Numbered from the stretch's first letter, positions 13,456 through 27,699 are shown. The stretch is DNA of 64,000 nucleotides from Frankiaceae bacterium (GCA_035940575.1 DASZER010000046.1:3439-67438); one strand, 5' to 3'. Numbers and translations: made by a program. Notes: generated by a model not told the origin, from the sequence alone.

Positions 13456-13644
13456 ATGGAGCGCGACCGCTTGATGACCCCCGGCGAGGTCGCGACGCTG
13501 TTCCGCGTCGACCCCAAGACCGTCACCCGCTGGGCCGTCGCGGGCCGCATCGGCAGCGTCCGTACGCCCGGTGGCCACCGCCGCTTCCGCGAGTCCGAGG
13601 TCCGCGCGCTCCTGCGCGGCGAGACCCGCGCCATCGCGGTCTAG
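13456..13644 (+). CDS. bldC: BldC-like small MerR/excisionase-type DNA-binding protein
   Basis: 62 aa MERDRLMTPGEVATLFRVDPKTVTRWAVAGRIGSVRTPGGHRRFRESEVRALL. It closely matches the Streptomyces BldC core (LLTPAEVATMFRVDPKTVTRWAKAGKL..IRTLGGHRRYREAEVRALL, from memory). GAGGAGG lies upstream of the ATG. Confidence 0.85.
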   Translation: MERDRLMTPGEVATLFRVDPKTVTRWAVAGRIGSVRTPGGHRRFRESEVRALLRGETRAIAV

Positions 13645-14264
13645 CCCTCCGAACGTTCGCGACGGGCGGCACCGAGGTCGCCCGTCCACCGCCGGTAGAG
13701 GTCGTGCTCCACGCCCAGCGCGTCGAGCACCCTCCCGGCCACGAAGTCCACGAGCTCCTGGACGGTCGAGGTCCCCGCGTAGAACGCCGGGCTCGCCGGC
13801 AGCACCACGGCCCCCGCGTCGTGCAGGGCCAGCATCGCCACCAGGTGCCCGCGGTCGAGAGGCGTCTCCCGCGGCACCACGACGAGCCTCCGCCGCTCCT
13901 TCAACGTCACGTCGGCGGCCCGCTGCACGAGGTCCTTCGACAGCCCTCCCGCGATGCCCGCGACGGCCGCCGTGCTGGCGGGGACGACGGCCATCCCGCG
14001 CGTGACGTACGAGCCGCTGCTCGGACCCGCGCCGAGGTCGCCTGGCCCCCAGTGTCGCACGTCGCCCTCGACGCCGACCCAGGCGTGCAGCGACGCCGCG
14101 TCGTCGTGCCACTGGATGCCGGTCTCGTCCAGCAGCGTGAGCCGCGCGGCGCGCGACACGACGAGGTCGACCGCGTGCCCGCCCTCGACCAGCGCGCGGA
14201 CGACGGCGGCGGCGTACGGCGTGCCGCTCGCGCCGGTGACGCCGACGACGTACGGCGCCCTCAT
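13641..14264 (-). CDS. ubiX: flavin prenyltransferase UbiX family
   Basis: 207 aa MRAPYVVGVTGASGTPYAAAVVRAL...VVPASTAAVAGIAGGLSKDLVQRAADVTLKERRRLVVVPRETP. ATGA overlap with the upstream gene. Confidence 0.85.
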   Translation of the reverse strand: MRAPYVVGVTGASGTPYAAAVVRALVEGGHAVDLVVSRAARLTLLDETGIQWHDDAASLHAWVGVEGDVRHWGPGDLGAGPSSGSYVTRGMAVVPASTAAVAGIAGGLSKDLVQRAADVTLKERRRLVVVPRETPLDRGHLVAMLALHDAGAVVLPASPAFYAGTSTVQELVDFVAGRVLDALGVEHDLYRRWTGDLGAARRERSEG

Positions 14265-15142
14265 GCCGCGCGGTCCAGCAGCGCGAACGCGAACAGGCCG
14301 ATGCCGACGTAGCCGTTGACGGTGAAGAACGCGCGGTTGACGCGCGACAGGTCGCCGGGCTTCACGATCGCGTGCTCGTACGCCAGCGCCCCGGCCGTCA
14401 GCGCGACGCCCGCCCACCACGCCCACCCGAGGCCCGCGTCGAGCCCGAACGCCACCAGCAGCGCCAGCGTCACGACGTGCGTCGCGACGGAGACGCGCAG
14501 CGCGGTCGCGACGCCGAAGCGGGCTGGCAGCGAGTGGACGCCGTTCGCGCGGTCGCTGTCGACGTCCTGGCAGGCGTAGACGAGGTCGAAGCCGGCGATC
14601 CAGGTGCCGACCGCGAGCCCGAGCCACAGCGCGGGCCGCGCGCCGTCGAACGTCTTCGACATCGCCACCCACGCGCCGACGGGCGCGATCGCCTGCGCGA
14701 GGCCGAGGACGTAGTGGCAGAGCCAGGTGAACCGCTTGGCGTACGGGTACAGCGTGAGCGGCGCGAGGGCGACCGGCGCGAGCGCGAGGCAGAGCGGGTC
14801 GAGCGCGAGCGCGGCGAGCAGGAAGATGGCGAGCGCGACGGCCATGCCGCCGTACGCCACCGAGACCGGCAGCGCGCCGGTCACGAGCTCGCGGCTCGCG
14901 GTGCGGGGGTTGCGCGCGTCGATCTCGCGGTCGATCACGCGGTTGGCCGCCATCGCGAACGTGCGCGCGGCCACCATCGCGACGGTGACGAGGAGCACGT
15001 CGAGCCAGTCGACGTCGGCGACGGCGGTCAGCGCGGCGATGTAGGCGAACGGCAGCGCGAACACCGAGTGCTCGATGACGACGAGCCGCAGGAAGCCCTT
15101 CACGCGCCCCTGGTGGACGACCGGCTCGGCGACGGTGCTCAC
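14261..15142 (-). CDS. mqnP: UbiA-family aromatic prenyltransferase (MqnP-like)
   Basis: 293 aa polytopic protein. UbiA motifs are NRVIDREIDARNPRT and the second Asp-rich region YACQDVDSD. GTGA overlap with the UbiD gene. Confidence 0.75.
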   Translation of the reverse strand: MSTVAEPVVHQGRVKGFLRLVVIEHSVFALPFAYIAALTAVADVDWLDVLLVTVAMVAARTFAMAANRVIDREIDARNPRTASRELVTGALPVSVAYGGMAVALAIFLLAALALDPLCLALAPVALAPLTLYPYAKRFTWLCHYVLGLAQAIAPVGAWVAMSKTFDGARPALWLGLAVGTWIAGFDLVYACQDVDSDRANGVHSLPARFGVATALRVSVATHVVTLALLVAFGLDAGLGWAWWAGVALTAGALAYEHAIVKPGDLSRVNRAFFTVNGYVGIGLFAFALLDRAA

Positions 15143-16578
15143 AAGCCCAGCTCACCCCAGCGGCGCGTGACGCGCTCGACGACGGCCGGGTCCTGCTCGA
15201 TCTCCGGCGGCCAGCCGCCGGCGCGCGCGTAGCCCTCGGTGGGCAGCTTGCGGGTCGCGTCGATGCCGGCCTTGCCGCCCCAGAACTGCTGGTACGCCGC
15301 GTGGTCGAGGTGGTCGACGGGGCCCGTCGACAGCAGCAGGTCGTGGGCGTAGTCGACGTTGCCGAACGCCCGCCACGCGACCTCGGAGTAGTCGTGCACG
15401 TCGCAGTCGGCGTCGACCACGACGACGAGCTTCGTCAGGGAGAGCAGGCCCGCGCCCCAGATCGCGTTCATCACCTTCTGCGCCTGCTTCGGGTAGCGCT
15501 TCTCGACCGAGACGATCGCGCAGTTGTGGAACACGCCCTCGACCGGCAGGTCGTAGTCGACGATCTCGGGCACCGTCATCTGGATCAGCGGTAGGAAGAT
15601 GCGCTCGGTCGCCTTGCCGAGCCACTCGTCCTCCTGCGGGGGACGCCCGACGACGATCGTCTGGAACACCGGGTCGCGCCGCATCGTCATCACGTCGACC
15701 GTCAGCGCGGGGAACGGCTCGACCGGCGTGTAGAAGCCGGTGTGGTCGCCGAACGGCCCCTCCGGCAGCCGTACCCCCGGCTCGAGCCAGCCCTCGAGGA
15801 CGATCTGCGCGTCGGCGGGGACCTGCAACGGCACCGAGAGGCAGTCGACCAGCTCGATCCGCTCGCCCTTGAGGAACCCGGCGAACAGGTACTCGTCGAT
15901 GCCCGGCAACGGCGCGCTGGCCGAGTAGGTCACGACCGGCTCGCAGCCGAACGCGATCGCGACCGGCAGCCGCTCGCCGCGCCGCTCGGCGACGGCGTGG
16001 TGGGCGTTGGAGTCCTTGTGGATCTGCCAGTGCATGCCCACCGTGCGCTTGTCGTGGCGCTGGAGCCGGTACATGCCGAGGTTGCGCGTGCCCTCGGTGG
16101 GGTGGCGCGTGTGGGTGAGGCCGAGGTTCAGGAACGCGCCGCCGTCGAGCGGCCACGTGTGCAGCGCGGGGAGGTCGTAGAGGTCGATCTCGTCACCGCG
16201 ACGGACGACCTCCTGGCACGGCGCGGTCTTGACCTTCTTCGGCGGGACCGAACGCAGCGAGAGCAGCTTGCCGAGGGACTCCCTGATGCCGGAGAGGCCG
16301 ACCGGCAGCTCGGGCCGCACGAGGTCGCGGATGCGGTCGCCGATGTCGTCCAGCCGCGCGACGCCGAGCGCGGCGGCCATGCGGCGCTCGGTCCCGAAGA
16401 CGTTGATGGCCAGGGGCATCGAGGAGCCGGTGACGTTCTCGAACAGCAGCGCCGGGCCGCCCGCGCGGGTCACGCGCTGGACGATCTCGGTCACCTCGAG
16501 GTGCGGGTCGACCGGCGCCTTGACCCGCTTGAGGTCGCCGTCCTTCTCGAGACGGCGGAGGAACGCGTCGAGGCTCAC
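15139..16578 (-). CDS. ubiD: UbiD-family (prFMN-dependent) decarboxylase
   Basis: 479 aa starting from GTG 16578 (VSLDAFLRRLEKDGDLKRVKAPVDPHLEVTEIVQRV...). Full-length UbiD-like. The upstream part of ORF 15139..16974 is Arg-rich shadow. Confidence 0.85.
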   Translation of the reverse strand: MSLDAFLRRLEKDGDLKRVKAPVDPHLEVTEIVQRVTRAGGPALLFENVTGSSMPLAINVFGTERRMAAALGVARLDDIGDRIRDLVRPELPVGLSGIRESLGKLLSLRSVPPKKVKTAPCQEVVRRGDEIDLYDLPALHTWPLDGGAFLNLGLTHTRHPTEGTRNLGMYRLQRHDKRTVGMHWQIHKDSNAHHAVAERRGERLPVAIAFGCEPVVTYSASAPLPGIDEYLFAGFLKGERIELVDCLSVPLQVPADAQIVLEGWLEPGVRLPEGPFGDHTGFYTPVEPFPALTVDVMTMRRDPVFQTIVVGRPPQEDEWLGKATERIFLPLIQMTVPEIVDYDLPVEGVFHNCAIVSVEKRYPKQAQKVMNAIWGAGLLSLTKLVVVVDADCDVHDYSEVAWRAFGNVDYAHDLLLSTGPVDHLDHAAYQQFWGGKAGIDATRKLPTEGYARAGGWPPEIEQDPAVVERVTRRWGELGL

Positions 16579-17108
16579 TGCCCCACCCTGCCGTCGATCG
16601 CCTGGCGCAGCAGGTCGGCGTGGCCCATGTGCCGCGCGTACTCCTCGATCATGTGCAGCATCACCCAGCGCAGGGAGACCCGCTTCTCCACGCCGACGAG
16701 GTCGAGGTCGTTGCGCTCGAAGAAGTCCTCGGCGTACGCCACCTCCTCGCGCCACGCGGCCCACGCCTCGTCCACGCCGTCGGCGCTCGCGCGGTCCCAG
16801 GCCGCGTCCACGTCGTCGTCGCGCTTGAACGGGCGCGGCGCGTCCTCGCCCGCGAGGCCGCGGCGGAACCATCCGCACTCCACGTCGGCCATGTGGCGTA
16901 CGAGGCCCAGCAGCGACATCGACGTCATCGGGACGGGGCGCGACGCGAGCTGCTCGGGTGTCAGCCCCTCGCACTTGAGGACGAGCGTCTCGCGCTGCCA
17001 GCGCAGGAAGCCGGCCAGCAGCTCGCGCTCGGTGCCGGCCCTCGGGACGTCCGTACGCGGGTCGTCGCCGGGGTCGACGAAGACGTCAGCGAACGGGGTC
17101 GTGCTCAG
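16575..17108 (-). CDS. DinB/DUF664-family protein, probable non-canonical CTG start
   Basis: Family region ERELLAGFLRWQRETLVLKCEGLTPEQL...SLLGLVRHMADVECGWF...HMIEEYARHMGHADLLRQ. There is no ATG/GTG/TTG between the far-upstream ATG 17378 and the internal MTSMS. CTG at 17108 overlaps the upstream stop as CTGA. Confidence 0.55.
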   Translation of the reverse strand: MSTTPFADVFVDPGDDPRTDVPRAGTERELLAGFLRWQRETLVLKCEGLTPEQLASRPVPMTSMSLLGLVRHMADVECGWFRRGLAGEDAPRPFKRDDDVDAAWDRASADGVDEAWAAWREEVAYAEDFFERNDLDLVGVEKRVSLRWVMLHMIEEYARHMGHADLLRQAIDGRVGQ

Positions 17109-17323
17109 TGCGCCTCGGCGCTCTCGGAGGCGCCGACCTGCTCGGTGGGGAACCGGTGCGGCGACGACTCGCGCGGCCCGTCGGAGAACGCCGCGAGGTA
17201 GTACGCCGCGATGCCCAGGATCAGCAGCGCGAGCGCGAGGTACCAGCGCGGCGCGGGGTTGTGGTCGACCTCGTCCCCGTCGCCGGTCGCGATCGGGTCG
17301 ATGAACAGCGGCCGCTCGGTCAC
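17105..17323 (-). CDS. 72-aa single-TM membrane protein
   Basis: MTERPLFIDPIATGDGDEVDHNPAPRWYLALALLILGIAAYYLAAFSDG... ATGA overlap with the CcoO-like gene. Confidence 0.55.
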   Translation of the reverse strand: MTERPLFIDPIATGDGDEVDHNPAPRWYLALALLILGIAAYYLAAFSDGPRESSPHRFPTEQVGASESAEAH

Positions 17324-17832
17324 TCGGACTCCTCGCAGGTGTGCTCGACGAGGAACGCCGCGAGCCGTTCGAGGTCACGGTGCACGAGGTGGCGGTACGA
17401 CGGCATCGTCGAGCCGGGATGCGCGGCGGCCGGGTCCTTGAGGTACTCGACCATCGCCGCGACCTTCTGCTCCTTGGTCGCGCCGTCCTCCGCGCCGGGC
17501 ACGCGGTCGCCGGCGCAGGCGAGGTCGGGGCCGTAGCGCGCCTGGCCCTGCAGGCCCGGCACGTCGTTGAGACCCTCGCCCGCGCTGCTCGGGCCCGCGG
17601 CGAGGTCGGCGTCGGTGAAGGCGTCGCGCACCTGGCGGGTGTGGCAGTAGACGCAGCCGTTGGAGCCGTAGAGGCCGCGGCCCTTCGCGCCCGCGACGCT
17701 GTGCTCGCGCGTCGCGTCGGTACGGGTCGTGGTGACGTCGGCCGTGGCGGGCGCGACGACCGTGGCGCCGTAGCCGAGGGCCACGAGCAGCGCGGGCCCG
17801 GCGAGCACGGGGAGCAGCGTCATGCGGCGCAT
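17320..17832 (-). CDS. CcoO/FixO-type monoheme cytochrome c (cbb3 oxidase subunit II-like)
   Basis: 170 aa with N-terminal TM MRRMTLLPVLAGPALLVALGYG. Heme site GRGLYGSNGCVYCHTRQVRD compares with canonical G.xxYxxEGCxxCHSQxxR. Distal region RYGPDLACAGDR...HPGSTMPSYRHL compares with GPDL...MPxY. Confidence 0.75.
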   Translation of the reverse strand: MRRMTLLPVLAGPALLVALGYGATVVAPATADVTTTRTDATREHSVAGAKGRGLYGSNGCVYCHTRQVRDAFTDADLAAGPSSAGEGLNDVPGLQGQARYGPDLACAGDRVPGAEDGATKEQKVAAMVEYLKDPAAAHPGSTMPSYRHLVHRDLERLAAFLVEHTCEESE

Positions 17833-17834
17833 CG

Positions 17835-19253
17835 TCACGACTCCTCGGGCGCCAGCGGGTCGCCGGCGGTCGACGTGGAGAACACCTGCTGGAACGCCGT
17901 CACGAGCGCGAACGTCACGAGCACCTCGCCCACGACGCGCAGCCAGAGCAGCGGGCGGATCGCGTCGGTGACGCGTACCCACGCGTCGCCGGTCGCGACC
18001 GAGGAGCCGTCGCGGACGCCCTGCGCGAGCAGCACGCCCTGGACGTAGCCCGCGACGAGCAGCGACAGCGCGACGAGCAGGACGCCGACGACGAGCGGCC
18101 AGGCGGCGTTGGCCGCGAGGCGCGGGTTGGTGATGCGGTTGCCCGACGCGGCCGGCAGCACGTGGAACACGCCCGCCAGGATGCCCGCGGCCGCGACGCC
18201 GAGCAGCGCGAGCTCGGACAGGCCGTCGGAGGCGACGCTGGCGTGCAGGAAGTCGCCCGCCGTACGCCCCGCCGTCGTCCCGGCGAGCAGCGCCCACGCG
18301 CCGAGCAGGCCGGCGGCGGCGAGGCCGAAGCGGAGGTCGGCGCCGTGCGCCAGCGCGGTGCGGCGCGCGTAGGTGCTCGCGACGAGCGTGACGTAGGCCA
18401 GGACGCCCGCGCCGAGCGCGATCGTCGCGGCGATGCCGACCGACTCGAGCCAGTCCTGCGCCGGCCCCCCGGCGAGGCGGGCCGCCCCCGCGAACGGCGC
18501 GAACACGAACCAGCCCCAGAACGCCGCCACGGCGAGCTGGCGGCTGTGCAGCGGCGCGCGCGACGACACCGGGATCGCGTAGAGCGCGAGGCCGAGCGCG
18601 AGCGGGACGAGCCAGAGCAGCTTGAGCCCGGACAGGCCGAACGCGAGCACCATCTCGTCGTTGACGCCGCGCACGCGCGGCAGCGCGCCGAACAGGATCA
18701 CGACGGGCGCGCAGAACAGCGCGCCGACCACGAACCACAGCGACGGGTGGACCTCGTCCTCGCGGCGCTTCGAGACCGTGCGCAGCACCGAGCAGAGCAG
18801 CAGGAGCTGGCCGAGCGCGATCAGCACGGCGAGCGGGCGCGGCATCTCGAAGCCCACGCGGCCGTTGCCGTGGCCGGTCAGCACCGCGAGCACCGAGCCG
18901 ACGACGCCGACCGTGACGATCGCGCCCGCGGCCTTGGAGAGGTTGTCGAGCTGGACGGGCGCCTTGGCGAGCCGGCGCGCGACGTCGAGGGCGGCGCCGT
19001 TGCCGAGCATGCCGAGGCCGCCGTAGGTGACCAGCAGGAACGCCGCCGGGCGCAGCCTGCCGACGTTCGTCGCCGCGCCGACCGTGAACACGTCGGCCGC
19101 GACCGTCTGCACCGAGACGAGCAGCAGCAGGAACGCGCCCAGGGCGAGGAACACCACGCCCGCGAGCAGCCAGGTCAGCGTCGACGCGGAGGGCTGCTCC
19201 CACGTGGGGGCGCTGGACTCCGACGCCGTCGACGGCGACGTCGTGACAGCCAC
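17835..19253 (-). CDS. cbb3-type oxidase subunit I (CcoN/FixN) homologue lacking the canonical His metal ligands
   Basis: 472-aa polytopic protein. It retains CcoN signature stretches (VGRLRP, EVHPSLWFVVGALF, QDWLESVGIA, AGYVQGVLL). Where CcoN has LHT, WWYGHNAVGF, WAGPHHLHY and GHVHSGALG, it has AAF, LAFGLSGLKL, FAGAARLAG and SDGLSELALLG. The comparison is from memory of Pseudomonas stutzeri CcoN. Confidence 0.6.
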   Translation of the reverse strand: MAVTTSPSTASESSAPTWEQPSASTLTWLLAGVVFLALGAFLLLLVSVQTVAADVFTVGAATNVGRLRPAAFLLVTYGGLGMLGNGAALDVARRLAKAPVQLDNLSKAAGAIVTVGVVGSVLAVLTGHGNGRVGFEMPRPLAVLIALGQLLLLCSVLRTVSKRREDEVHPSLWFVVGALFCAPVVILFGALPRVRGVNDEMVLAFGLSGLKLLWLVPLALGLALYAIPVSSRAPLHSRQLAVAAFWGWFVFAPFAGAARLAGGPAQDWLESVGIAATIALGAGVLAYVTLVASTYARRTALAHGADLRFGLAAAGLLGAWALLAGTTAGRTAGDFLHASVASDGLSELALLGVAAAGILAGVFHVLPAASGNRITNPRLAANAAWPLVVGVLLVALSLLVAGYVQGVLLAQGVRDGSSVATGDAWVRVTDAIRPLLWLRVVGEVLVTFALVTAFQQVFSTSTAGDPLAPEES

Positions 19254-19340
19254 GCGGCAACCTCCGGGGACGCGGACGCAGGATCGGCCCAGATGTTAGT
19301 GGGGCGGGCACGCACGGCGCGAAACGCGCGCCGCGCGACC

Positions 19341-19703
19341 TCAGTCGTGCGCGGTACGCGGCTTGCGAATCCGCTTGGCGGGCGGAGCGTCCACGGTCTT
19401 GGCCGGCTTGGCGTCCGGGGCCGCACCGTCGTTCGAGTTCAGGAAGGCGTTGAGGGCGTCGCGTGTCAGGTCGGACACCGACCGTCCCGTCCTCTGGGCG
19501 AACGCCACGACCTTGCCGTGGAGGTCCGAGGGGATGCGCGTGTTCAGCGCCTTGCTCGTCCCGCCCTCGGCGGACAGCGACGGGCGGCCCGCCTTGCGCA
19601 GCGGGTTCGGGACCGCGGGACCGACCTCGCGCGCATCGAGCCCCTTCTCGGCCTTCGCGAGCGCGGCGGCCTCGCGCTCGGGGGTCCACGGCTTCTTCGT
19701 CAT
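19341..19703 (-). CDS. ribbon-helix-helix (CopG/BrnA-like) antitoxin
   Basis: 120 aa starting at ATG 19703. RHH segment is GRPSLSAEGGTSKALNTRIPSDLHGKVVAFAQRTGRSVSDLTRDALNAFL. Lies 5 nt downstream of the small toxin-like gene. Confidence 0.6.
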   Translation of the reverse strand: MTKKPWTPEREAAALAKAEKGLDAREVGPAVPNPLRKAGRPSLSAEGGTSKALNTRIPSDLHGKVVAFAQRTGRSVSDLTRDALNAFLNSNDGAAPDAKPAKTVDAPPAKRIRKPRTAHD

Positions 19704-19708
19704 CGTCG

Positions 19709-19981
19709 TCACCTGGTCGTCTGGTCGTAGAGGGGCCGGTACTTGGGGCGCATCGGCATCACGTGGAAGATCCGTACGGCCTCGGCTCCCAGGAGCCGCA
19801 CCATGACCTCCAGCGGGACGCCGTTCGGGTCGTCGCCGAGGAACAGCAACAGGTCGGGGTCGGGCTCGCCGTCCTCGTCCACGACCGGGAACGCCGTCGG
19901 TGCCGTGTCGAGCACATGCCGCGCACGGGCGCGAGAGACGCCGTGCCTGGCCGCCGACTGCGCCCACTCGTACCGAGGCAT
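19709..19981 (-). CDS. putative toxin of a toxin-first TA pair (BrnT-like arrangement)
   Basis: 90 aa MPRYEWAQSAARHGVSRARARHVLD...VRIFHVMPMRPKYRPLY. The small size, toxin-then-RHH order and W..x..HGVS / I.H.M..R motifs recall BrnT-type toxins. The family assignment is tentative. Confidence 0.45.
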   Translation of the reverse strand: MPRYEWAQSAARHGVSRARARHVLDTAPTAFPVVDEDGEPDPDLLLFLGDDPNGVPLEVMVRLLGAEAVRIFHVMPMRPKYRPLYDQTTR

Positions 19982-20031: not shown

Positions 20032-20961
20032 CTAGACCCCGGCGTAGGAGTGCAGGCCCGACACCCAGATGTTGACGACGTAGTACGTCACCATCAGCGA
20101 GGCGAAGCCGGCGACGGCGATCCAGGCGGCGCGGCGGCCGCGCCAGCCGGCGGTCGAGCGCGCGTGCAGGTAGCCGGCGTAGACGACCCAGGTCACGAAC
20201 GACCAGGTCTCCTTCGGGTCCCAGCCCCAGTACCGCCCCCACGCGGCCTCGGCCCAGACGGCACCGGCCATGACGGTGAACGTCCACACAGGGAAGCCGA
20301 ACGCGTGCACGCGGTACGACACCCGGTCCAGCGTCGCCGCGGACGGCAGGCGCGAGGGCTTGTCGGGCGCGCGGCGGTCGCGCCAGGAGCGCCACAGGTA
20401 CAGCGCGGCGGCGACGAAGCCGACCATGAAGATGCCCGACGACGCCATGGCGCCGACGACGTGGATCTTGATCCAGTACGAGTTGAGCGCGGGGACGAGC
20501 GGGGCGGCGGGCGCGTAGAGGACGAGCGCCGCGACGCCGAGGTAGAGGATCACCGGCAGCATCACGAAGCCGCCGAGGTGGCGCAGCGGGTGGCGGCGGA
20601 TCACGCCGAGCCACGCGACGACGGCGAACAGCGACACCATCGACGAGAACTCGTACATGTTGCCCCACGGCACGCGGTCGACCGCGAGGCCGCGCGTGAC
20701 GGCGGATGCGACGTGCAGCAGCAGGCCCACGACGGTTGCGACGACGGCGACGCGGCCGGCGAGGCGCGGCACCCGCGAGGGCGCGGCGACCGCGGCGGCG
20801 ACGGGCGCCGGCACGGTGTCGACGGCGCCGCCCGCGATGGGGCGCGGCGCGAGGCGGCCGAACGACAGCTCCACGAAGTAGCCGAACATCGCGACGACGT
20901 ACGCGATCACCGCCGCGAACAGCAGCGTGTCGCTCGCCCGCGCGAGCCCCTCGTCGATCAC
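20032..20961 (-). CDS. ccsB: cytochrome c biogenesis protein CcsB/ResC (system II heme handling)
   Basis: 309 aa starting at GTG 20961 (GTGA overlap). Trp-rich WWD-type region is WAEAAWGRYWGWDPKETWSFVTW. Polytopic. Confidence 0.85.
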   Translation of the reverse strand: MIDEGLARASDTLLFAAVIAYVVAMFGYFVELSFGRLAPRPIAGGAVDTVPAPVAAAVAAPSRVPRLAGRVAVVATVVGLLLHVASAVTRGLAVDRVPWGNMYEFSSMVSLFAVVAWLGVIRRHPLRHLGGFVMLPVILYLGVAALVLYAPAAPLVPALNSYWIKIHVVGAMASSGIFMVGFVAAALYLWRSWRDRRAPDKPSRLPSAATLDRVSYRVHAFGFPVWTFTVMAGAVWAEAAWGRYWGWDPKETWSFVTWVVYAGYLHARSTAGWRGRRAAWIAVAGFASLMVTYYVVNIWVSGLHSYAGV

Positions 20962-22502
20962 GGCTTCTCCAGCGACGCTTGCAACGACTCGGCCACGCTC
21001 GCGAGCTCCGGCTCGTACCCCGCCGGGTCCTGGCGCGCGAGCCCGCCGACCTCCACGAGGGTACCCGCCTCGGTCGCGGTCGCCTTCACCCAGAGCCGCC
21101 GCCTGCGGATCCGCAGCGACAGGATCAGGCCGGTCAACGCCAGGATCGCCGCGACGAGCACGACCCGCTTGCCCGGGTCGGAGTTGACGTGCAGGACCGC
21201 GAAGTCCTTCACGCCGTCGAACTCCACGGTCAGCCCGCCGGGCAGCCGCTCGATCGTCTCGCCGAGGAACGCCACGCCCCCGCCCGCGCGCACCATCCCC
21301 TCCGTGTCGAGCTCGTAGACGTTCTGCGGCAGGCCGCTGTCGAGGCCGAGGCTGCCCGCCCACGTCTCGTAGACGAACGCCGGGATCAGCGCCTCGGGCG
21401 CGGCCGAGAACACCGTCTGCCCCCGCCGCGCGTACGTCGGCACGAACCGCCCGCGCAGCCCCACGTCGGGCAGCCCGCCGCCGAGGTCGGAGACCTTGAC
21501 GACGCCGTCGGAGACGAGGTTGGCCGCGCCCCTGTCGGGGAGGAACGGCTGCCACTGGTCGTAGACGACGGTGCCGTCGGGCAGGCGCGCGGTGAAGTGC
21601 AGCGCGTAGCCGTGGTCGAGCAGGTAGACCCGCGCGCCGCGCACGGTCAGCGGCTCGTTGACCCGGACGGTCCGCTTCCGGTCTGGCGCGCCCACCGAGG
21701 GGCGCCAGCGCACGTCGACCTCGTACGACGACGGCGCGCCGTTGGGCAGGAACCGCGCCCTGAAGTCGTCCACCGTCACCTCGAACGGCGGCAGGTCGTC
21801 GCCGGTGTTGAGGCGGCCGGGGTGCAGCTCGTCGTACGCCGCCGGCGTGTTGACGAACGTGTCGCCCTCCACGACGAGCACGTCGCCGCGGTACCCCCAC
21901 GCGGCGCCCATCGCGACGCCGGCGAGCAGGCCGAGCAGCGCGAGGTGGAACGCGATGTTGCCGGTCTCGCGCACGTAGCCGCGCTCGGCGGACAGGCCGG
22001 TGTCGTACGGCCGCACGCGCCAGCGCCGCAGCGACCGCCGGGCCGCGTCGTAGACCTCGGTAGGCGACGCCGACGTCGTGAACGACCGCGAGACGGGGAG
22101 GCGCGAGAGGTTGCGCGGCGGCGCCGGCGGGACCGAGCGCAGCGCGCGCACGTGCAGCCGGATGCGCGGGGTGAGGCAGCCGACGAGCGACACCATCAGC
22201 GCGAGGTAGATCGCGCCGAACCACGGCGAGGCGTAGACGTCGAACGCGTACAGCCGGTCCAGCCACGGCGCGAGCGACGGGTGGTCGCCGTAGTAGCCGG
22301 CGACGCCCGACGGGTTGAGCGAGCGCTGCGGCAGCAGCGAGCCCGGCACCGCCGCGACGGCGAGCAGGAACAGCAGCAGCAACGCCGTCCGCATCGACGT
22401 CCACGTACGCCACGCCCTGCGCATCGCCGCGCCGGGCCCGACGCGGGGCGGCGCGGGCGCGCGGTCCTCTGGCGAGGTGGAGAGCTCGGTCGTCGCGGTC
22501 AC
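20958..22502 (-). CDS. resB: cytochrome c biogenesis protein ResB/Ccs1
   Basis: 514 aa starting at GTG 22502 (GTGA overlap). N-terminus is WRTWTSMRTALLLLFLLAVAAVPGSLLPQR, followed by a large extracytoplasmic domain and a C-terminal TM. Confidence 0.85.
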   Translation of the reverse strand: MTATTELSTSPEDRAPAPPRVGPGAAMRRAWRTWTSMRTALLLLFLLAVAAVPGSLLPQRSLNPSGVAGYYGDHPSLAPWLDRLYAFDVYASPWFGAIYLALMVSLVGCLTPRIRLHVRALRSVPPAPPRNLSRLPVSRSFTTSASPTEVYDAARRSLRRWRVRPYDTGLSAERGYVRETGNIAFHLALLGLLAGVAMGAAWGYRGDVLVVEGDTFVNTPAAYDELHPGRLNTGDDLPPFEVTVDDFRARFLPNGAPSSYEVDVRWRPSVGAPDRKRTVRVNEPLTVRGARVYLLDHGYALHFTARLPDGTVVYDQWQPFLPDRGAANLVSDGVVKVSDLGGGLPDVGLRGRFVPTYARRGQTVFSAAPEALIPAFVYETWAGSLGLDSGLPQNVYELDTEGMVRAGGGVAFLGETIERLPGGLTVEFDGVKDFAVLHVNSDPGKRVVLVAAILALTGLILSLRIRRRRLWVKATATEAGTLVEVGGLARQDPAGYEPELASVAESLQASLEKP

Positions 22503-23260
22503 AGCGCGGTCTCGAACCCGCCGATCCAGACCTGCATCCGCGCCACGATCCGCGTCCACTCGCCGGTGACGAGCAGCACGCCGATCAGCACGAGGAACCC
22601 GCCGCCGATCCGCGTGACGAGCGCGTAGTGGCGCTTCACGACCGCGAACGCCGCCATGGAGCGCTCGAACGCGAGCCCCGCCAGCACGAACGGCAGGCCG
22701 AGGCCGAGGCAGTAGAACAGCGAGAGCAGCGCGCCGCGGCCCGCCGTGCCGGTGGAGTAGGCGAGGGAGTTGACGGCGGTCAGCGTCGGCCCCGCGCACG
22801 GCGTCCAGCCGACGCCGAACAGCACGCCCAGCAGCGGCGCCCCCGCGAGCCCGGTCTTCGGCAGCGCATGGATGCGGAACTCCCGCGAGAACAGCGACAC
22901 CCGCGACAGCGCGCCCATGAACGCCAGGCCGAGCACGATGGTCACGACGCCGAGCACCCGCGTGATCGCGTCGGCGTGGTCGGCGAACACCCGCCCCGCC
23001 GCGCCGAACGCCGCGCCCGCCGAGACGAACACCACCGAGAAGCCGAGCACGAACAGCAGCCCGCCCACGACCACCCGCGAGCGCTGCCGCGCGGTGACGT
23101 CGGCCTCCGCGAGGTCGGCGCCGGTGAGGCCGGTGACGAAGGACAGGTAGCCCGGCACGAGCGGCAGCACGCACGGCGAGAGGAAGGACACGAGCCCGGC
23201 CAAGACCGCGATCGGGATGGCGGCCAGCAGCGACCCGGAGAGGACGGTGTCCTGGATCAC
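22499..23260 (-). CDS. ccdA: cytochrome c biogenesis thiol-reductant transporter CcdA (DsbD family)
   Basis: 253 aa starting at GTG 23260. Conserved Cys motifs are FLSPCVLPLVPGY and GWTPCAGPTL. Confidence 0.85.
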   Translation of the reverse strand: MIQDTVLSGSLLAAIPIAVLAGLVSFLSPCVLPLVPGYLSFVTGLTGADLAEADVTARQRSRVVVGGLLFVLGFSVVFVSAGAAFGAAGRVFADHADAITRVLGVVTIVLGLAFMGALSRVSLFSREFRIHALPKTGLAGAPLLGVLFGVGWTPCAGPTLTAVNSLAYSTGTAGRGALLSLFYCLGLGLPFVLAGLAFERSMAAFAVVKRHYALVTRIGGGFLVLIGVLLVTGEWTRIVARMQVWIGGFETAL

Positions 23261-23823
23261 GGCGCCCGCTCCGCGAGCACCCGGTCGACGAGCGTCCGCA
23301 GCGGCGCCTCGTCGAGCACGCCGAACGCGTACGCCGCGACGCGGCCCGACCTGTCGACGACGTAGGTGGCGGGCGGCGACTTCGGCACGGTCTCGAACAG
23401 CGTGAGCAGCCGCCCCGGCTCGTCGTGGAAGGAGGGGTACGTCACGCCGTAGCGCTCGACGTGCCGCCTCGCGGCGACGGCGTCGTCGCGGATGTCGATG
23501 CCGACGAACGCCACGCCCCGCGAACGCGTGTCGCGCCAGACGCGTTCCAGGTGCGGCTGCTCGGCGCGGCACGGGACGCACCAGGCGCCCCACACGTTCA
23601 CCACCGCGACGCCGCCGCCGCGCAGCTCCGCGAGCGAGAGCGGCCTGCCGTCCAGGCCCTCGCCCGCCAGCGCCGGGGCGGGCTCGCGAGAGCCCGTGGA
23701 GACGTACGTCACCACGGCGTCGCCGGCGACGTAGCGCTCCGCGCCGTCGGGCGCGCCGCCGCGCGTGCAGCCCGCCGCCGCCACCAGGGCGAGCGCGAGC
23801 GCCACGGCGCGGAGGCGGGGCAC
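23257..23823 (-). CDS. resA: TlpA/ResA-type thiol-disulfide oxidoreductase lipoprotein
   Basis: About 188 aa. Lipobox LVAAAGC and thioredoxin motif VNVWGAWCVPCRAE. The GTG 23823 start is approximate. Confidence 0.75.
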   Translation of the reverse strand: MPRLRAVALALALVAAAGCTRGGAPDGAERYVAGDAVVTYVSTGSREPAPALAGEGLDGRPLSLAELRGGGVAVVNVWGAWCVPCRAEQPHLERVWRDTRSRGVAFVGIDIRDDAVAARRHVERYGVTYPSFHDEPGRLLTLFETVPKSPPATYVVDRSGRVAAYAFGVLDEAPLRTLVDRVLAERAP

Positions 23824-23997: not shown

Positions 23998-24312
23998 ATG
24001 GCCAACCCGCTCCAGCGGTCCCAGTGGCTCCGCGTGGCCTTCGGGTCGCTGCTCTGCACGATGCTGTTCATGGTGTTCTTCGCGGCCGTCCCCTCGGCGA
24101 TCATCAACTGGTCCGACGGCTGGTCCTGGGTCCAGGCGCCCGAGACGTTCGGCGTCCTCGGCCTCGGCAAGCGGCTCCGCGACCTGATCATCGTCGGCTG
24201 GTACGGCGCCATCACCCCCGTCACGTTCGTCGCGTTCTCGCTCTGGCAGAAGCTGCACCCGGTCAACGCCGATGCGGACGAGCCGAAGCGCGACGCGGGC
24301 GGCTACCGCTAG
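23998..24312 (+). CDS. 104-aa membrane protein, first gene of the b6-type operon
   Basis: ATG 23998 is preceded by GAGGAAGG. Product MANPLQRSQWLRVAFGSLLCTMLFMVFFAAVPSAII...IIVGWYGAITPVTFVAFSLW has 2-3 hydrophobic segments. Confidence 0.6.
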   Translation: MANPLQRSQWLRVAFGSLLCTMLFMVFFAAVPSAIINWSDGWSWVQAPETFGVLGLGKRLRDLIIVGWYGAITPVTFVAFSLWQKLHPVNADADEPKRDAGGYR

Positions 24313-24328
24313 ACGGAGGCGCGCCCAC

Positions 24329-24682
24329 ATGACCGACAACCGCGTCGAGATCTACGACGACTACGTCCTCGGCACCGTCGACCCCAACTGGCTCCAGGAG
24401 CGGGTCAAGCCGAAGCGTCACATCGCGCTCTCCCCCGAGCTGTGCATCCTCTGTCGGGCGTGCGAGGACGTGTGCCCGTGGGAGTGCATCTACATGATGT
24501 CGCCCGACATCGTCGCGGGCGCGGAGAGCAGCGACCTCAAGACGCTCTCGGAGACGGCGGGCGCCGTCTTCATCATCGACGACAACGAGTGCACCCGGTG
24601 CGGCATCTGCGTCGACCGCTGCCCGCCCGGCGCGCTGTTCTACTCGAAGATCGGCGAAGCCGCCGCGAAGAAGAAGCACTAG
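24329..24682 (+). CDS. 2x[4Fe-4S] ferredoxin-type protein
   Basis: 117 aa with two motifs, CILCRACEDVCP and CTRCGICVDRCP. 16 nt after the previous gene and 12 nt before cytochrome b6. Confidence 0.8.
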   Translation: MTDNRVEIYDDYVLGTVDPNWLQERVKPKRHIALSPELCILCRACEDVCPWECIYMMSPDIVAGAESSDLKTLSETAGAVFIIDDNECTRCGICVDRCPPGALFYSKIGEAAAKKKH

Positions 24683-24694
24683 GAGGTCGGGCCG

Positions 24695-25492
24695 GTGGCC
24701 GAGAAGGACGGTCGTCTCAACGAGGCGAAGGACGCCCTCGTCGAGATGGTGAAGCCGAAGGACCCGCGCGAGGGCGCGGTCTGGAAGTCCATCTTCCGCC
24801 CCGGCTCGATCTACCGCCCCGGGTACAGGGACACGTCGCGCGACCGCGCGCTCGCGACGATGAACAACGTCCTGTACCACCTGCACCCGGTGAAGCTGAA
24901 GCGCCACGGCCTCAAGCTCACCTACACGTACTGCCTCGGCGGCCTGTCGTTCTTCCTGTTCATCGTGCTGACGGTGACGGGCATCTACCTGATGTTCTTC
25001 TACCGGCCCTCGGCCGGCTTCGGGCAGGAGCTCGCGTACCGCGACATCCAGAACCTGTCGTCGGGCATCGCGTTCGGCCAGCTCGTCCGCAACATGCACC
25101 GATGGTCGGCGCACGGCATGGTCTTCACGGTCTTCCTGCACATGGCGCGCGTCTTCTACCACGGCGCGTACAAGGCACCGCGCGAGTTCAACTGGGTCGT
25201 CGGCGTCATCCTGCTGCTGCTGACCCTGCTGCTGTCGTTCACGGGCTACCTGCTCCCGTGGGACCAGCTCGCGATCTGGGCCGTCGCCGTCGGCACGCAG
25301 ATGATGGGCTACACGCCGGTCTTCGGTGCCGAGGTGCGCTTCGTGCTCCTGGGCGGCGTCGAGATCGGGCCGCCCACCCTCCTCCGCTGGTACGTCCTCC
25401 ACGTCCTCGCGCTGCCATTCGTGGCGGTCATCTTCATGGCCGTCCACTTCTGGCGGATCCGCAAGGACGGCGGAATCTCCGGACCTCTGTAA
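24695..25492 (+). CDS. cytochrome b6-type subunit (N-terminal four-helix half of cytochrome b)
   Basis: 265 aa. His pairs lie in VRNMHRWSAHGMVFTVFLHMARVF and LRWYVLHVLALPFVAVIFMAVHFWRIRKDGGISGPL. The YCLGG Cys is present. The C-terminus is almost identical to plastid/cyanobacterial b6 (...IRKQGISGPL). Confidence 0.85.
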   Translation: MAEKDGRLNEAKDALVEMVKPKDPREGAVWKSIFRPGSIYRPGYRDTSRDRALATMNNVLYHLHPVKLKRHGLKLTYTYCLGGLSFFLFIVLTVTGIYLMFFYRPSAGFGQELAYRDIQNLSSGIAFGQLVRNMHRWSAHGMVFTVFLHMARVFYHGAYKAPREFNWVVGVILLLLTLLLSFTGYLLPWDQLAIWAVAVGTQMMGYTPVFGAEVRFVLLGGVEIGPPTLLRWYVLHVLALPFVAVIFMAVHFWRIRKDGGISGPL

Positions 25493-25501
25493 GGGGCGTC
25501 G

Positions 25502-26398
25502 ATGGCTGAAGAGATCACCCCGGACCCCGAGGTCTACGCCGCCGCGATCGCGGCCGGCGACTCGGAGCGGATGGCGCGCGCCAAGGCCAAGTCAGCCGCG
25601 GTGAAGAAGGCGCGCAAGGCGGCGGGCATCCCGTCGCCGGCCGAGCAGGCCGCGGCGGCCGCCGCCGCACCTGCCGCCGCCGCCGCGCCCGCCGCGAGCG
25701 ACGCGCCTCCCCCGGCCACCGCCGCTGCCGTCGCCGCCCCCGCCGCCACGGCGGGTGCCCCGGCCGCGGCTCCCGCGGCCGCCGCGGGTGGCGGTGGCAC
25801 GGCGACCCTGACGCGTTCGACGCCGCTGTCCCCCGCCGAGCGCGCGGCGCGCGTGGCCGCCGCGACGCAGGGCAAGGCCGGAGGCGGGCGCGGGCTGTCG
25901 GGCGAGATGACCCACCGCCTGCTGGCGATGGTCCCGCCGGAGGGCATCCAGCGCGTCGAGCGCACGCAGGACGACAAGGTCAACGTCTGGCCGCACCTGC
26001 TCCTCGAGGAGTTCGTCGCGGTCCTCGCGTGCACGGCGTTCCTCGTGCTGTTCTCGACGTTCGTCAACGCGCCGCTGCTGGACCTGGCGAACGTCAACCT
26101 GACGCCGAACCCCTCCAAGGCGCCGTGGTACTTCCTGGGCCTCCAGGAGCTGCTGCGCTACTACCACCCGATGATCGCCGGCGTGCTCATCCCCGGCATC
26201 GGCCTGGGCATCCTGATGGCGTTCCCCTACATCGACAAGAACCCGTCGATGCGGCCCGCCAACCGCAAGTTCGCGATCATGCTGTTCACGTTCTTCATGA
26301 TGTTCTCGGCGATCCTGTCGACGATCGGTTCCCTCTTCCGCGGGCCTGGCTACAACTTCATCTTCCCGTGGCAAAAGGGCCTCTACTTCGAGTTCTAG
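25502..26398 (+). CDS. subunit IV-like protein (C-terminal half of cytochrome b) with a ~150-aa Ala/Pro-rich N-terminal extension
   Basis: 298 aa. The C-terminal 3-TM domain contains NPSKAPWYFLGLQELLRY (PEWY-box equivalent). The N-terminus is low-complexity AAAAAPAAAAAP... Confidence 0.8.
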   Translation: MAEEITPDPEVYAAAIAAGDSERMARAKAKSAAVKKARKAAGIPSPAEQAAAAAAAPAAAAAPAASDAPPPATAAAVAAPAATAGAPAAAPAAAAGGGGTATLTRSTPLSPAERAARVAAATQGKAGGGRGLSGEMTHRLLAMVPPEGIQRVERTQDDKVNVWPHLLLEEFVAVLACTAFLVLFSTFVNAPLLDLANVNLTPNPSKAPWYFLGLQELLRYYHPMIAGVLIPGIGLGILMAFPYIDKNPSMRPANRKFAIMLFTFFMMFSAILSTIGSLFRGPGYNFIFPWQKGLYFEF

Positions 26399-26412
26399 CG
26401 AGAGGCAGGACG

Positions 26413-26973
26413 GTGGCGAAGAAGAAGGGCATGTCCCGGCGGGACTTCTTCCGCACGGGGATGCTCGGCAGCGCGGCGGTGTTCGGTGGCGGCTTCACCG
26501 CCGCCACCCTCGGCATGCTCTGGCCCAGCCTCAAGGGCGGCTTCGGCGCCAAGATCAACCTGGGCCGCGCGGACGACCTCAAGGCCGAGCTCGCCGCGAT
26601 CCCGCACAACTGGAAGTACTACGCCGAGGCGCGGTCGTACATCATCCTGTACACCCCCGCGGCCGGGCAGGAGGCGTTCTACAAGGGCGTCGCCGAGGGC
26701 GGGTTCCTCGCGACGTACCAGAAGTGCGCGCACCTCGGCTGCAAGGTCCCGCAGTGCGAGTCGAGCGGCTGGCTCGAGTGCCCGTGCCACGGCTCCCGCT
26801 ACAACAAGGCCGGCGAGTACGAGTTCGGCCCCGCGCCGCGCGGGCTCGACCACTTCCCGATCATCCTCGACGGCGACAACATCATCGTCGACACCGCCAC
26901 GCGCAAGGAAGGCCCGCCGCGCGGCACCAACACGATCAACCAGAACCCCGCCGGCGCGCACTGCCAGGGCTAG
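26413..26973 (+). CDS. Rieske [2Fe-2S] protein with Tat signal
   Basis: Cluster boxes are CAHLGC and CPCHGS. Twin-arginine motif is SRRDFFRTG. The start is GTG 26413 or ATG 26431. Confidence 0.85.
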   Translation: MAKKKGMSRRDFFRTGMLGSAAVFGGGFTAATLGMLWPSLKGGFGAKINLGRADDLKAELAAIPHNWKYYAEARSYIILYTPAAGQEAFYKGVAEGGFLATYQKCAHLGCKVPQCESSGWLECPCHGSRYNKAGEYEFGPAPRGLDHFPIILDGDNIIVDTATRKEGPPRGTNTINQNPAGAHCQG

Positions 26974-27012
26974 CCAGCCCTACCTGATCCGAGAAGGAGA
27001 CCCCTCCGAGCG

Positions 27013-27699
27013 ATGAGCGACATCTCCCCGCGCGAGCGGCGTTCCGACGCCGTAGCCCGGCGCAAGAAGCTCTCGGTCCCGATCGGGTTCCGTCCGGCGC
27101 CGTCCGACGACGAGCTGGAGACCAACGTCCTGGAGCGGTGGCAGGGCTGGGGCCTGCTCCTGCTGCTGTTCCTGGCGCTGTTCCTGCCGCTGTACTTCAT
27201 CTTCTTCGAGAACCAGCGCTCCAACGACGCCGCGCTCGAGCAGCGCGCGGAGTCGATCAGGCGGGGCGCCGCGATCTTCGCGCAGGGCAAGCCCGGCGCC
27301 CACGGCTTCCAGGCCGGGTGCGCGCGCTGCCACGGGACGTACGCCGGCGGCGGCGTCGTGCCGCAGTGGAAGGCCAACCCGACCGCCCAGCCCGCCGACG
27401 TCCCCGCGCCGTCGCTGACCGAGGTGTTCAAGCGCCAGATCGTCGACCTCAAGAAGACGCCGCGCGACGCCTACCGCTTCGTCTACGAGACGATCGCGCA
27501 GGGCCGCCCCGGCACGCCGATGCCCACGTGGGGCCTCGGCTACGGCGGCCCGATGAACGACCAGCAGATCGAGGACGTCATCAACTACCTGCTGTCGGTC
27601 CAGACCGGCCTGCCGGAGGAGGTCGCCAGCGAGATCGCGCTCGGCGACGGCTCCGGCGGCGCGTTCTCCCACCTCATCACCTTCGCCGCCTCGCGGTAG
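27013..27699 (+). CDS. membrane-anchored monoheme cytochrome c
   Basis: 228 aa with one TM (WGLLLLLFLALFLPLYFIFF), a single CARCH heme site and GRPGTPMPTWG as the Met-ligand region. Confidence 0.8.
   Translation: MSDISPRERRSDAVARRKKLSVPIGFRPAPSDDELETNVLERWQGWGLLLLLFLALFLPLYFIFFENQRSNDAALEQRAESIRRGAAIFAQGKPGAHGFQAGCARCHGTYAGGGVVPQWKANPTAQPADVPAPSLTEVFKRQIVDLKKTPRDAYRFVYETIAQGRPGTPMPTWGLGYGGPMNDQQIEDVINYLLSVQTGLPEEVASEIALGDGSGGAFSHLITFAASR

Follow-up and report, generated by a model that had tools for sequence, protein, structure and literature searches.

Background

The genes examined in this report can be compared with three described systems: the cbb3 oxidase CcoNOQP, represented by the structure from Pseudomonas stutzeri (3MK7) and by supercomplexes from P. 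aeruginosa (8SMR) and Rhodobacter capsulatus (6XKW); the late futalosine operon mqnL-mqnP-mqnM of the SCO4490-SCO4492 type, which was predicted by Ravcheev and Thiele in 2016 (PMC4746308); and the QcrCAB-CtaCDEF III2-IV2 supercomplex of Corynebacterium glutamicum (7Q21), where complex III is connected with the aa3 oxidase through a c-type cytochrome anchored in the membrane. The genes of this report occupy the minus strand in a stretch of 64,000 nucleotides (nt) from a bacterium labelled Frankiaceae (GCA_035940575.1, DASZER010000046.1:3439-67438), which we refer to as the window and from whose first letter all positions are counted. Genes for a CcoN-like protein (pCcoN), a CcoO-like cytochrome (pCcoO) and a membrane protein of 72 amino acids (TM72), together called the trio, are chained there through a DinB-family gene to the menaquinone genes mqnL, mqnP and mqnM (mqnLPM). 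Comparison with related genomes indicates that this chain probably arose secondarily, in one lineage, by fusion of two units that had been separate in its ancestors, and that the trio belongs with a neighbouring complex III cluster rather than with the quinone genes.

The trio shares with the cbb3 oxidase the gene order N, O and a small or P-like anchor, and pCcoN has the same 12-helix fold as CcoN, with TM-scores of 0.87-0.89 and root-mean-square deviations of 2.5-2.9 Å. As with the cbb3 oxidase and its supercomplexes, the genes are found near a quinol:cytochrome c oxidoreductase, but the dihaem CcoP, the six His ligands and the cross-linked Tyr of the oxidase are all missing. The mqnLPM genes of the window have the same order and the same 4-nt overlaps as across the Actinomycetes; they differ from operons of the SCO4490-SCO4492 type by lacking a GATACT box, described below, and by being welded through the DinB-family gene to a respiratory unit upstream. 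The likeness to QcrCAB might be one of analogy, drawn from one phyletic event and the gene neighbourhood; the trio has no sequence relationship to QcrC. More distant CcoN-like proteins that also lack the cofactor ligands resemble pCcoN in their ligand loss, in having kept c-type cytochrome partners and in their position by a quinol:cytochrome c oxidoreductase, whereas the family to which the window belongs is the only one of this kind that we found in the class Actinomycetes and the only one adjoining mqn genes. A 2021 survey of the haem-copper oxidoreductases described their active-site histidines as otherwise completely conserved (10.1101/2021.10.15.464467), and we found no description in the literature of ligand-less CcoN proteins or of the chained operon.

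Results and Discussion

An older junction interrupted by the trio

The window belongs to a family of 17 genomes (G000-G016), in which all relatives are uncultured metagenome-assembled genomes (MAGs) labelled as Frankiaceae or Mycobacteriales bacterium. The trio is present in 13 of these and in no other family among 400 sampled genomes of Actinomycetes. All 13 carriers have the same gene order, consisting of ccsB, the trio, mqnL-mqnP-mqnM, a convergent bldC and lrp. In representatives of five other Actinomycetes families (G029, G031, G036, G045 and G055) ccsB leads straight into mqnLPM across gaps of ~30-115 nt, which implies that the trio was inserted into an older junction. The mqnLPM genes are also present and conserved where the trio is missing, in the family as well as beyond it. 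The initial annotation had proposed that linkage between the CcoN/CcoO-like pair and the quinone genes should be looked for in related genomes; it holds throughout the carriers in this family, but does not extend to the distant loci considered below, none of which has mqn genes.

The junctions within the trio and those within mqnLPM are tight in every genome, and what varies is the distance from TM72 to mqnL. In the window this distance is bridged by the DinB-family gene with 4-nt overlaps (-4), and in G005, the closest relative and the only other genome with DinB in this slot, by the same gene with junctions of +37 and -4 nt. The two genes overlap by CTGA in G002 and are separated by +3 nt in G015, by +27 to +65 nt in G010, G014, G016 and G009, by +236 nt in G001 and by ~430-820 nt in G004, G006, G003 and G012. 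The slot between them carries different cargo in different genomes (loci L015, L016, L017, L005 and L045): a NUDIX gene on the same strand in G003, G004 and G006, and, on the opposite strand in three of the 13 trio genomes, a KTSC gene (G001 and G003) or a PhzF gene (G012), all verified with Pfam. In family members without the trio (L033 and L034) the slot between ccsB and mqnL holds a bacterioferritin gene with a Bfd-like gene, or else a gene of the chlorite dismutase family. The slot is thus a site of high gene turnover.

Promoter-like elements of the two units

Additional indications that the two units were once separate come from the sequences that precede them, in which conserved motifs emerged through comparison across genomes and not through scans for consensus sites. 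When the 75 nt before mqnL were compared in 26 actinomycete loci, a (G)GGATACT box, with the variants GATAAT and AATACT, was seen in 18 of them, ending 6-7 nt ahead of the mqnL start (for example at 7205-7222 of L018, and in L032, L036 and L041). Its carriers include eight of the 13 trio genomes, all three sequenced junctions that lack the trio, and members of seven other families. A TAnnnT motif at such a position marks leaderless genes in Actinobacteria (PMC3160421), and the GATACT box may be regarded as a leaderless-type -10 element of the mqnLPM operon. The box is absent from the window, G005, G002 and G015. Since these box-less genomes fall on at least three separate branches of the MqnL and CcsB trees (the window with G005, G002, and G015), the tight fusion appears to have arisen repeatedly. 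An independent promoter between the CcoO-like gene and the UbiD-type gene had been named at the outset as an observation that would speak against the coupling of the two units; a candidate for such a promoter exists in the eight box-bearing trio genomes and is lacking in the window itself.

The trio has a promoter-like region of its own. Before pCcoN in the window are a GTTTCG box (19325..19320), the sequence TAACAT (19298..19293), which fits TAnnnT and is 39 nt before the pCcoN start, and a CGGAGG motif (19265-19261). In an alignment of 12 genomes whose flanking sequences have otherwise diverged, the TT of the box, the T-A-n-n-n-T pattern and CGGAGG are invariant or nearly so, and these elements would be expected to act as a promoter. 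The GTTTCG box is ~20 nt upstream of TAACAT, a spacing longer than that of the usual -35/-10 pair, and it may therefore be the site of a regulator. General consensus scans had no power of this kind at a G+C content of 73%: a scan for sigma-70 and terminator consensus sites found none of either kind where 0.0 and 1.5 would be expected, which is uninformative at such a base composition, and the finding of no terminator-like sites between 12900 and 21200 has little power for the same reason.

A probable route from two units to one chain

The history that we consider probable begins with an old actinobacterial mqnL-mqnP-mqnM operon that normally comes directly after ccsB and has its own leaderless-type GATACT -10 box. 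In one uncultured family the trio would have been inserted between ccsB and mqnL; it has a conserved promoter-like region of its own and a start led by a Shine-Dalgarno (SD) sequence, and would belong to the neighbouring respiratory cluster. In the sub-lineage of the window, a gene for a DinB-family protein or mycothiol-S-transferase (MST) would have landed in the same slot afterwards, and the DinB start codon, the mqnL box and the spacers would then have been lost by deletion. The mqnLPM genes of the window genome are now probably transcribed from the trio promoter and translated by coupling of stops to starts, which would amount to co-expression by capture and not to a shared biochemical function.

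The seven-gene chain of the window

All seven of the co-directional, chained genes that the initial annotation had recognized were recovered on the minus strand at the positions given in Table 1. In the direction of the chain, the junctions are TGAcgATG (a 2-nt gap), GTGA, CTGA, GTGA, GTGA and ATGA, so that the earlier count of one gap and five 4-nt overlaps was right, although the first overlap is GTGA and not ATGA. At the junction of pCcoN with pCcoO, the alternative start for pCcoO is GTGA. A CTAG palindrome at 13641-13644 serves the stop codons of both mqnM and the convergent bldC-like gene, so there is no intergenic DNA across the stretch from 19253 to 13641, and the two convergent genes leave no room for terminators between them. 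SD-like sequences, GGAGG or GAGGAG, precede pCcoN, pCcoO and TM72, and weaker SD-like motifs precede the other genes of the chain.

Table 1. Positions of the chained genes, their promoter-like region and neighbouring genes in the window
Feature	Position	Strand	Description
pCcoN (CcoN-like)	19253..17835	minus	472 amino acids; GTG start; GGAGG 7 nt upstream
pCcoO (CcoO-like)	17832..17320	minus	170 amino acids; GAGGAG upstream; start 2 nt past the pCcoN stop
TM72	17323..17105	minus	72-amino-acid single-pass membrane protein; GTGA overlap with the pCcoO stop
DinB/mycothiol-S-transferase (MST)	17108..16575	minus	177 amino acids; PF04978, 154 bits; CTGA join to TM72
mqnL (UbiD-type menaquinone decarboxylase)	16578..15139	minus	TIGR03701, 650 bits (cut-off 496); GTGA with the DinB stop
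mqnP (UbiA-type prenyltransferase)	15142..14261	minus	NF041584 MqnP_SCO4491, 427.7 bits (cut-off 420); GTGA with mqnL
mqnM (UbiX-type flavin prenyltransferase)	14264..13641	minus	TIGR00421, 168.5 bits (cut-off 108.9); ATGA with mqnP
bldC-like gene	13456..13644	plus	convergent to mqnM
Promoter-like region of the trio	19293..19325	minus	putative; alignment of 12 genomes from four genera
ccsB	20985..20035	minus	Pfam Cytochrom_C_asm, 164 bits
resB	~22700..20961	minus	Pfam ResB, 424 bits
resA-like thioredoxin	23823..23260	minus	Pfam AhpC-TSA/Redoxin
b6-type complex III operon	24272..27696	plus	Pfam: 2x[4Fe-4S] ferredoxin, cytochrome b6-like, subunit IV-like, cytochrome c

At 73% G+C, mechanical lists of open reading frames for the window are full of spurious frames, from which profile searches pick out the seven genes. 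An NTGA motif, with N other than C, is to be expected at most TGA stops and by itself says little; the boundaries of the chain rest more on homology, because tblastn alignments to the orthologues of 12 related genomes start within the first three residues of each protein. With a crude gene caller based on the G+C content of third codon positions (GC3), candidate 4-nt overlaps were found at ~12% of the co-directional neighbour pairs in the genome, a rate at which five overlaps in a row are unusual. No run found by the same caller exceeded three, a figure that is indicative only, as this caller missed pCcoO, TM72 and mqnM. The seven genes most likely form one unit of transcription and translation in the window genome, and to that extent the co-expression of the CcoN/CcoO-like pair with mqnLPM that had been suggested for it remains probable, judging from the junctions.

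The CTGA junction between TM72 and the DinB gene is peculiar in that the DinB frame contains no ATG, GTG or TTG between 17378 and codon 62, and translation of this gene would thus need either a CTG start or reinitiation. The CTG of this CTGA (17105-17108) is found where the G005 orthologue has ATG-GGC after its 37-nt spacer. An assembly error at the junction was ruled out, as an independent Logan contig from the source soil metagenome shows 0 differences from the window over 16400-18000. In G002 (locus L014, oriented positions 7140-7152) a CTGA overlap directly follows the 72-amino-acid gene, and the affected gene there is mqnL, which has ACG where other genomes have ATG and is without an ATG, GTG or TTG start. 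Two independent CTGA junctions suggest that CTG initiation or termination-reinitiation might be in use in this lineage.

The trio as a cofactor-less cbb3 skeleton

The CcoN-like protein of the chain had been described at the outset as something other than an O2 reductase, and the comparison with P. stutzeri CcoN (3MK7) bears this out. All six ligand histidines and the cross-linked tyrosine have been replaced in pCcoN (H60 by A71, H207 by L207, Y251 by A252, H257 by A258, H258 by R259, H345 by L345 and H347 by E347), and these replacements are fixed in all 47 family sequences aligned, with identities as low as 47%. With all of these residues gone, haem b, haem b3 and CuB could not be bound in the known way and O2 reduction is excluded. 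At the same time ~60 residues are invariant across the 47 sequences; H169 and R259 belong to this set, as do numerous buried Arg, Glu and His residues. The protein passes the PF00115 profile (69.8 bits, cut-off 34.8) and is far below the cut-off of the CcoN equivalog TIGR00780 (60.5 bits against 583). Its AlphaFold2 (AF2) model has a pLDDT of 86.9, a pTM of 0.89 and the 12-helix CcoN fold; the top Foldseek matches of the model are the CcoN chains of 3MK7, 8SMR and 6XKW (TM-scores 0.83-0.89), with 3MK7 the best (0.88), and NorB (0.75-0.81) ranks below them, as do the A and B families.

The pCcoO protein is a FixO/CcoO-type monohaem cytochrome c with a membrane anchor. It is recognized by PF02433 (FixO) at 59.6 bits against a cut-off of 29.6 and falls below the CcoO equivalog TIGR00781 (50.6 bits against 200.65). 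Its N-terminal transmembrane (TM) anchor, its CVYCH motif and the Met ligand within MPSY align with CcoO of 3MK7 and 8SMR, and the CxxCH motif and Met ligand are intact in 11 of 11 full-length orthologues. The third gene, TM72, directly follows pCcoO in all 13 trio genomes. The FixP_N profile (PF14715), whose features looked for were D-N-P-x-P-x-W-W and a TM helix, gave sub-threshold matches to three of six TM72 orthologues (E 0.003-0.09, 13-18 bits, cut-off 24.9), and a 61-amino-acid gene at the position of TM72 in the distant locus L049 scored above the cut-off, at 29 bits. TM72 may, by these profile scores, be a relic of the N-terminal anchor of CcoP. The trio as a whole is a cofactor-less cbb3 skeleton and not an oxidase.

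Ratios of nonsynonymous to synonymous substitutions (dN/dS, Nei-Gojobori) are inflated in these genomes, where synonymous change is compressed at a GC3 above 0.9, and were used only relative to neighbouring genes. They are 0.43-0.59 for pCcoN (0.43 against G005) and 0.31-0.76 for pCcoO, compared with 0.16-0.27 for MqnL and MqnM and 0.33-0.44 for MqnP; that of TM72 reaches ~1, near neutrality, at larger distances. The trio is a module under constraint that is not indispensable. In G010 (locus L022, ~6380-6590) the CcoO-like gene has shrunk to a 69-amino-acid frame that retains the TM anchor and a C-terminal LAAYLV..HC helix; the haem-c domain with its CxxCH is gone, and pCcoN and the small TM gene are intact there.

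Association with complex III and cytochrome c maturation

Upstream of the trio in the window is a resA-resB-ccsB group for cytochrome c maturation, divergent from a ferredoxin-bearing operon for a b6-type complex III (Table 1), and ccsB adjoins the trio on its upstream side in all family members and in four distant lineages. A profile of the family, searched against 1.84 billion representatives, returned 1,153 proteins. Among the 150 best of these, 127 keep only 0-2 of the six ligand histidines and ~20 are canonical, which means that the cofactor-less state is widespread and diverse. A mixed alignment of the distant relatives contained no conserved stretch that could be used for searching, and a narrower alignment gave a single MAG; the sample of distant contexts consists of 13 loci, several of them on short contigs, with 2-10 kb readable around each. 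The ligand-less CcoN proteins encoded there are 26-31% identical to pCcoN. Within these 2-10 kb, no UbiD, UbiA or UbiX (mqn) gene was found in any of the 13 loci. Six of the loci directly follow resB/ccsB or are beside ccmE (L046, L047/48, L049, L051, L056 and L061), and five are beside a quinol:cytochrome c oxidoreductase (L047, L052, L054, L055 and L056); four of these five (L047, L052, L054 and L056) have the ferredoxin-bearing b6-type operon and one has alternative complex III (ACIII). The cytochrome b6 of the distant b6-type operons is 66-70% identical to that of the window, and the layout of the window, with its ferredoxin-b6 operon, resA-resB-ccsB and trio, matches that of the distant loci.

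The trio and canonical QcrA/QcrB exclude each other among the members of the family. A b6-type cytochrome b occurs in 16 of the 17 genomes and nowhere else in the class sample of 400 Actinomycetes. In the 13 trio genomes it is the sole cytochrome b, and a QcrA_N domain is missing from all of them. The trio-less genomes G007 and G011 encode a canonical QcrA that includes QcrA_N and a QcrB of 540-565 amino acids, and G008 has a QcrB-like fragment; the only family clade that lacks the trio is the one in which canonical QcrAB was found. This pattern fits the idea of a trio that became dispensable where a classical bc1 complex is present.

CcoN-fold proteins are known to dock on complex III in the solved bc1-cbb3 supercomplexes 8SMR, 6XKW and 9G83. 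The most likely function of the trio would be that of a redox-dead membrane scaffold with a c-haem relay on the b6-type complex III, for which we see something close to an even chance, perhaps slightly less. In such a role, whether as scaffold or as relay, it would stand in for the connection to the aa3 oxidase that QcrCAB canonically provides in other actinobacteria. The suggestion that the pair provides an electron outlet would then be compatible with what we find, although the outlet would be one of complex III and not one of quinone synthesis.

The genome has one canonical CtaD. As a separate observation, its CtaC (aa3 subunit II; contig C31:13595-14659, outside the window) has an extra C-terminal cupredoxin domain of the blue-copper type (HNIAV...YRFYCQVHPLMEG). 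Similar blue-copper domains are found on COX2 or on ligand-less CcoN proteins in distant loci (L046, 3485-4597, and the C-termini of the fused proteins P0057 and P0074). Such cupredoxin domains hint at an electron route through copper proteins.

Alternative explanations

It had been supposed in the initial annotation that the chaining marks a partnership in menaquinone biosynthesis. In such a partnership pCcoN and pCcoO would act, for example, as a quinol- or naphthoate-binding scaffold or as an assembly platform for membrane-bound MqnP and MqnL, with their stoichiometry set by the chain. Six consecutive junctions without intergenic DNA in the window would agree with this, as would the adjacency to mqnLPM in every carrier and the recurrence of a tight fusion in G005, G002 and G015; since MqnP is an integral membrane enzyme, a membrane scaffold for it is conceivable. 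We nevertheless regard such a partnership as very improbable, because the mqnLPM genes are conserved in genomes without the trio as well, eight of 13 carriers keep the GATACT box, three have genes of opposite strand in the gap of variable length, the ccsB-mqnL junction predates the insertion, and the 13 distant ligand-less loci show no mqn gene in the 2-10 kb readable around them. The trio and mqnLPM could instead have different jobs and have been joined for adaptive reasons, with the finishing of the quinone placed under the promoter of the branch that oxidizes quinol so that supply follows demand. The loss of the mqnL box in favour of tight junctions on at least three independent occasions (the window with G005, G002, and G015) and the respiratory character of the whole neighbourhood, with its b6 complex, cytochrome c maturation genes, trio and menaquinone genes, speak for this kind of coupling. 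Most family members, however, keep the two units separate; the same slot has gathered NUDIX, KTSC, PhzF and DinB genes in a manner that resembles neutral turnover; spacer loss is common in a compact genome of 73% G+C; and the destruction of the DinB start codon on the way looks more like accident than design, so that we think adaptive coupling unlikely. A decaying cbb3 remnant without function, whose position and chaining are neutral leftovers and whose long frames persist easily at this G+C content, is somewhat less likely again. The loss of all catalytic ligands, the rather high dN/dS values (0.43-0.59 for pCcoN and up to ~1 for TM72), the loss of the trio in one clade and the deletion of the haem domain in G010 are what decay would produce, but it would hardly leave ~60 invariant residues over 47 sequences down to 47% identity, a CxxCH and Met ligand in all 11 orthologues, a conserved promoter-like region and SD sequence, a confident AF2 model of pCcoN, or a large and diverse ligand-less family that keeps the same partners in distant lineages.

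The secondary fusion of two separate units, with the trio belonging to the complex III cluster, remains the reading that we prefer, and several points weigh against it or parts of it. Selection for co-expression could explain why the trio and mqnLPM are adjacent in all 13 carriers and have been tightly fused at least three times. The GATACT box has G in place of T as its first base and might have a function other than that of a -10 element. The sequencing runs that hold the stretch are DNA metagenomes of soil, air and biocrust, and no RNA run was found. Promoter function, co-transcription, the CTG or reinitiation start and an accessory role at complex III are deduced from identities, ligand losses, junctions, synteny, motif conservation and phyletic patterns that can be observed directly, and the link of the trio to complex III in particular is drawn from gene neighbourhood, phyletic pattern and the precedent of the fold. 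Because the trio-less genera form a single nested clade (100/100 in the MqnL tree), the complementarity with QcrAB amounts to about one evolutionary event, and several of the trio-less genomes are incomplete MAGs. The loss of the haem domain in G010 means that a relay role is not universal, and the trio evolves faster than MqnL and MqnM (dN/dS 0.3-0.6 against 0.16-0.27), with pCcoN and pCcoO at about the pace of MqnP. A bolder version, in which the trio is an obligate adaptor that takes the place of a QcrC-type link, its scaffold docking on the b6-type complex III and presenting the CcoO-like haem c to the aa3 oxidase (with the extra blue-copper domain on CtaC), and in which the mqn genes of this sub-lineage were captured through the trio promoter and non-canonical CTGA reinitiation so that quinone supply and the quinol-oxidizing branch became one unit, seems to us rather doubtful, at about the level of adaptive coupling.

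Consequences for annotation and for studies of operon evolution

Genes in compact genomes of high G+C content can become chained through the recent and accidental loss of spacers, and in the present case the trio that is welded to the quinone genes in the window is a separate unit in most of its relatives. Databases name pCcoN as "cbb3-type cytochrome c oxidase subunit I", a label that would wrongly credit these soil bacteria with a high-affinity oxidase; the comparison places this cofactor-less oxidase relic instead beside an unusual, ferredoxin-bearing b6-type complex III and adds a testable pattern, in which the relic occurs in genomes that lack the canonical actinobacterial bc1 complex. 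The natural pairs of fused and unfused operons and the two independent CTGA junctions could be used in studies of promoter capture and of reinitiation in Actinomycetota.

Other features of the locus and the genome

In several distant loci the trio is followed by a geranylgeranyl-reductase-like (GGR/MenJ-like) gene together with nuoA. The GGR gene was considered as a second link of the trio to quinones and was rejected: the window genome carries the GGR-nuoA pair too, but on a different contig from the trio, and the pair is accordingly a matter of backbone synteny and not a partner of the trio. Genes of the MqnA/D family are found elsewhere in the genome. Between ccsB and the trio, two small genes (19341-19981) are present in the window genome only, at a place where most relatives have 67-190 nt.

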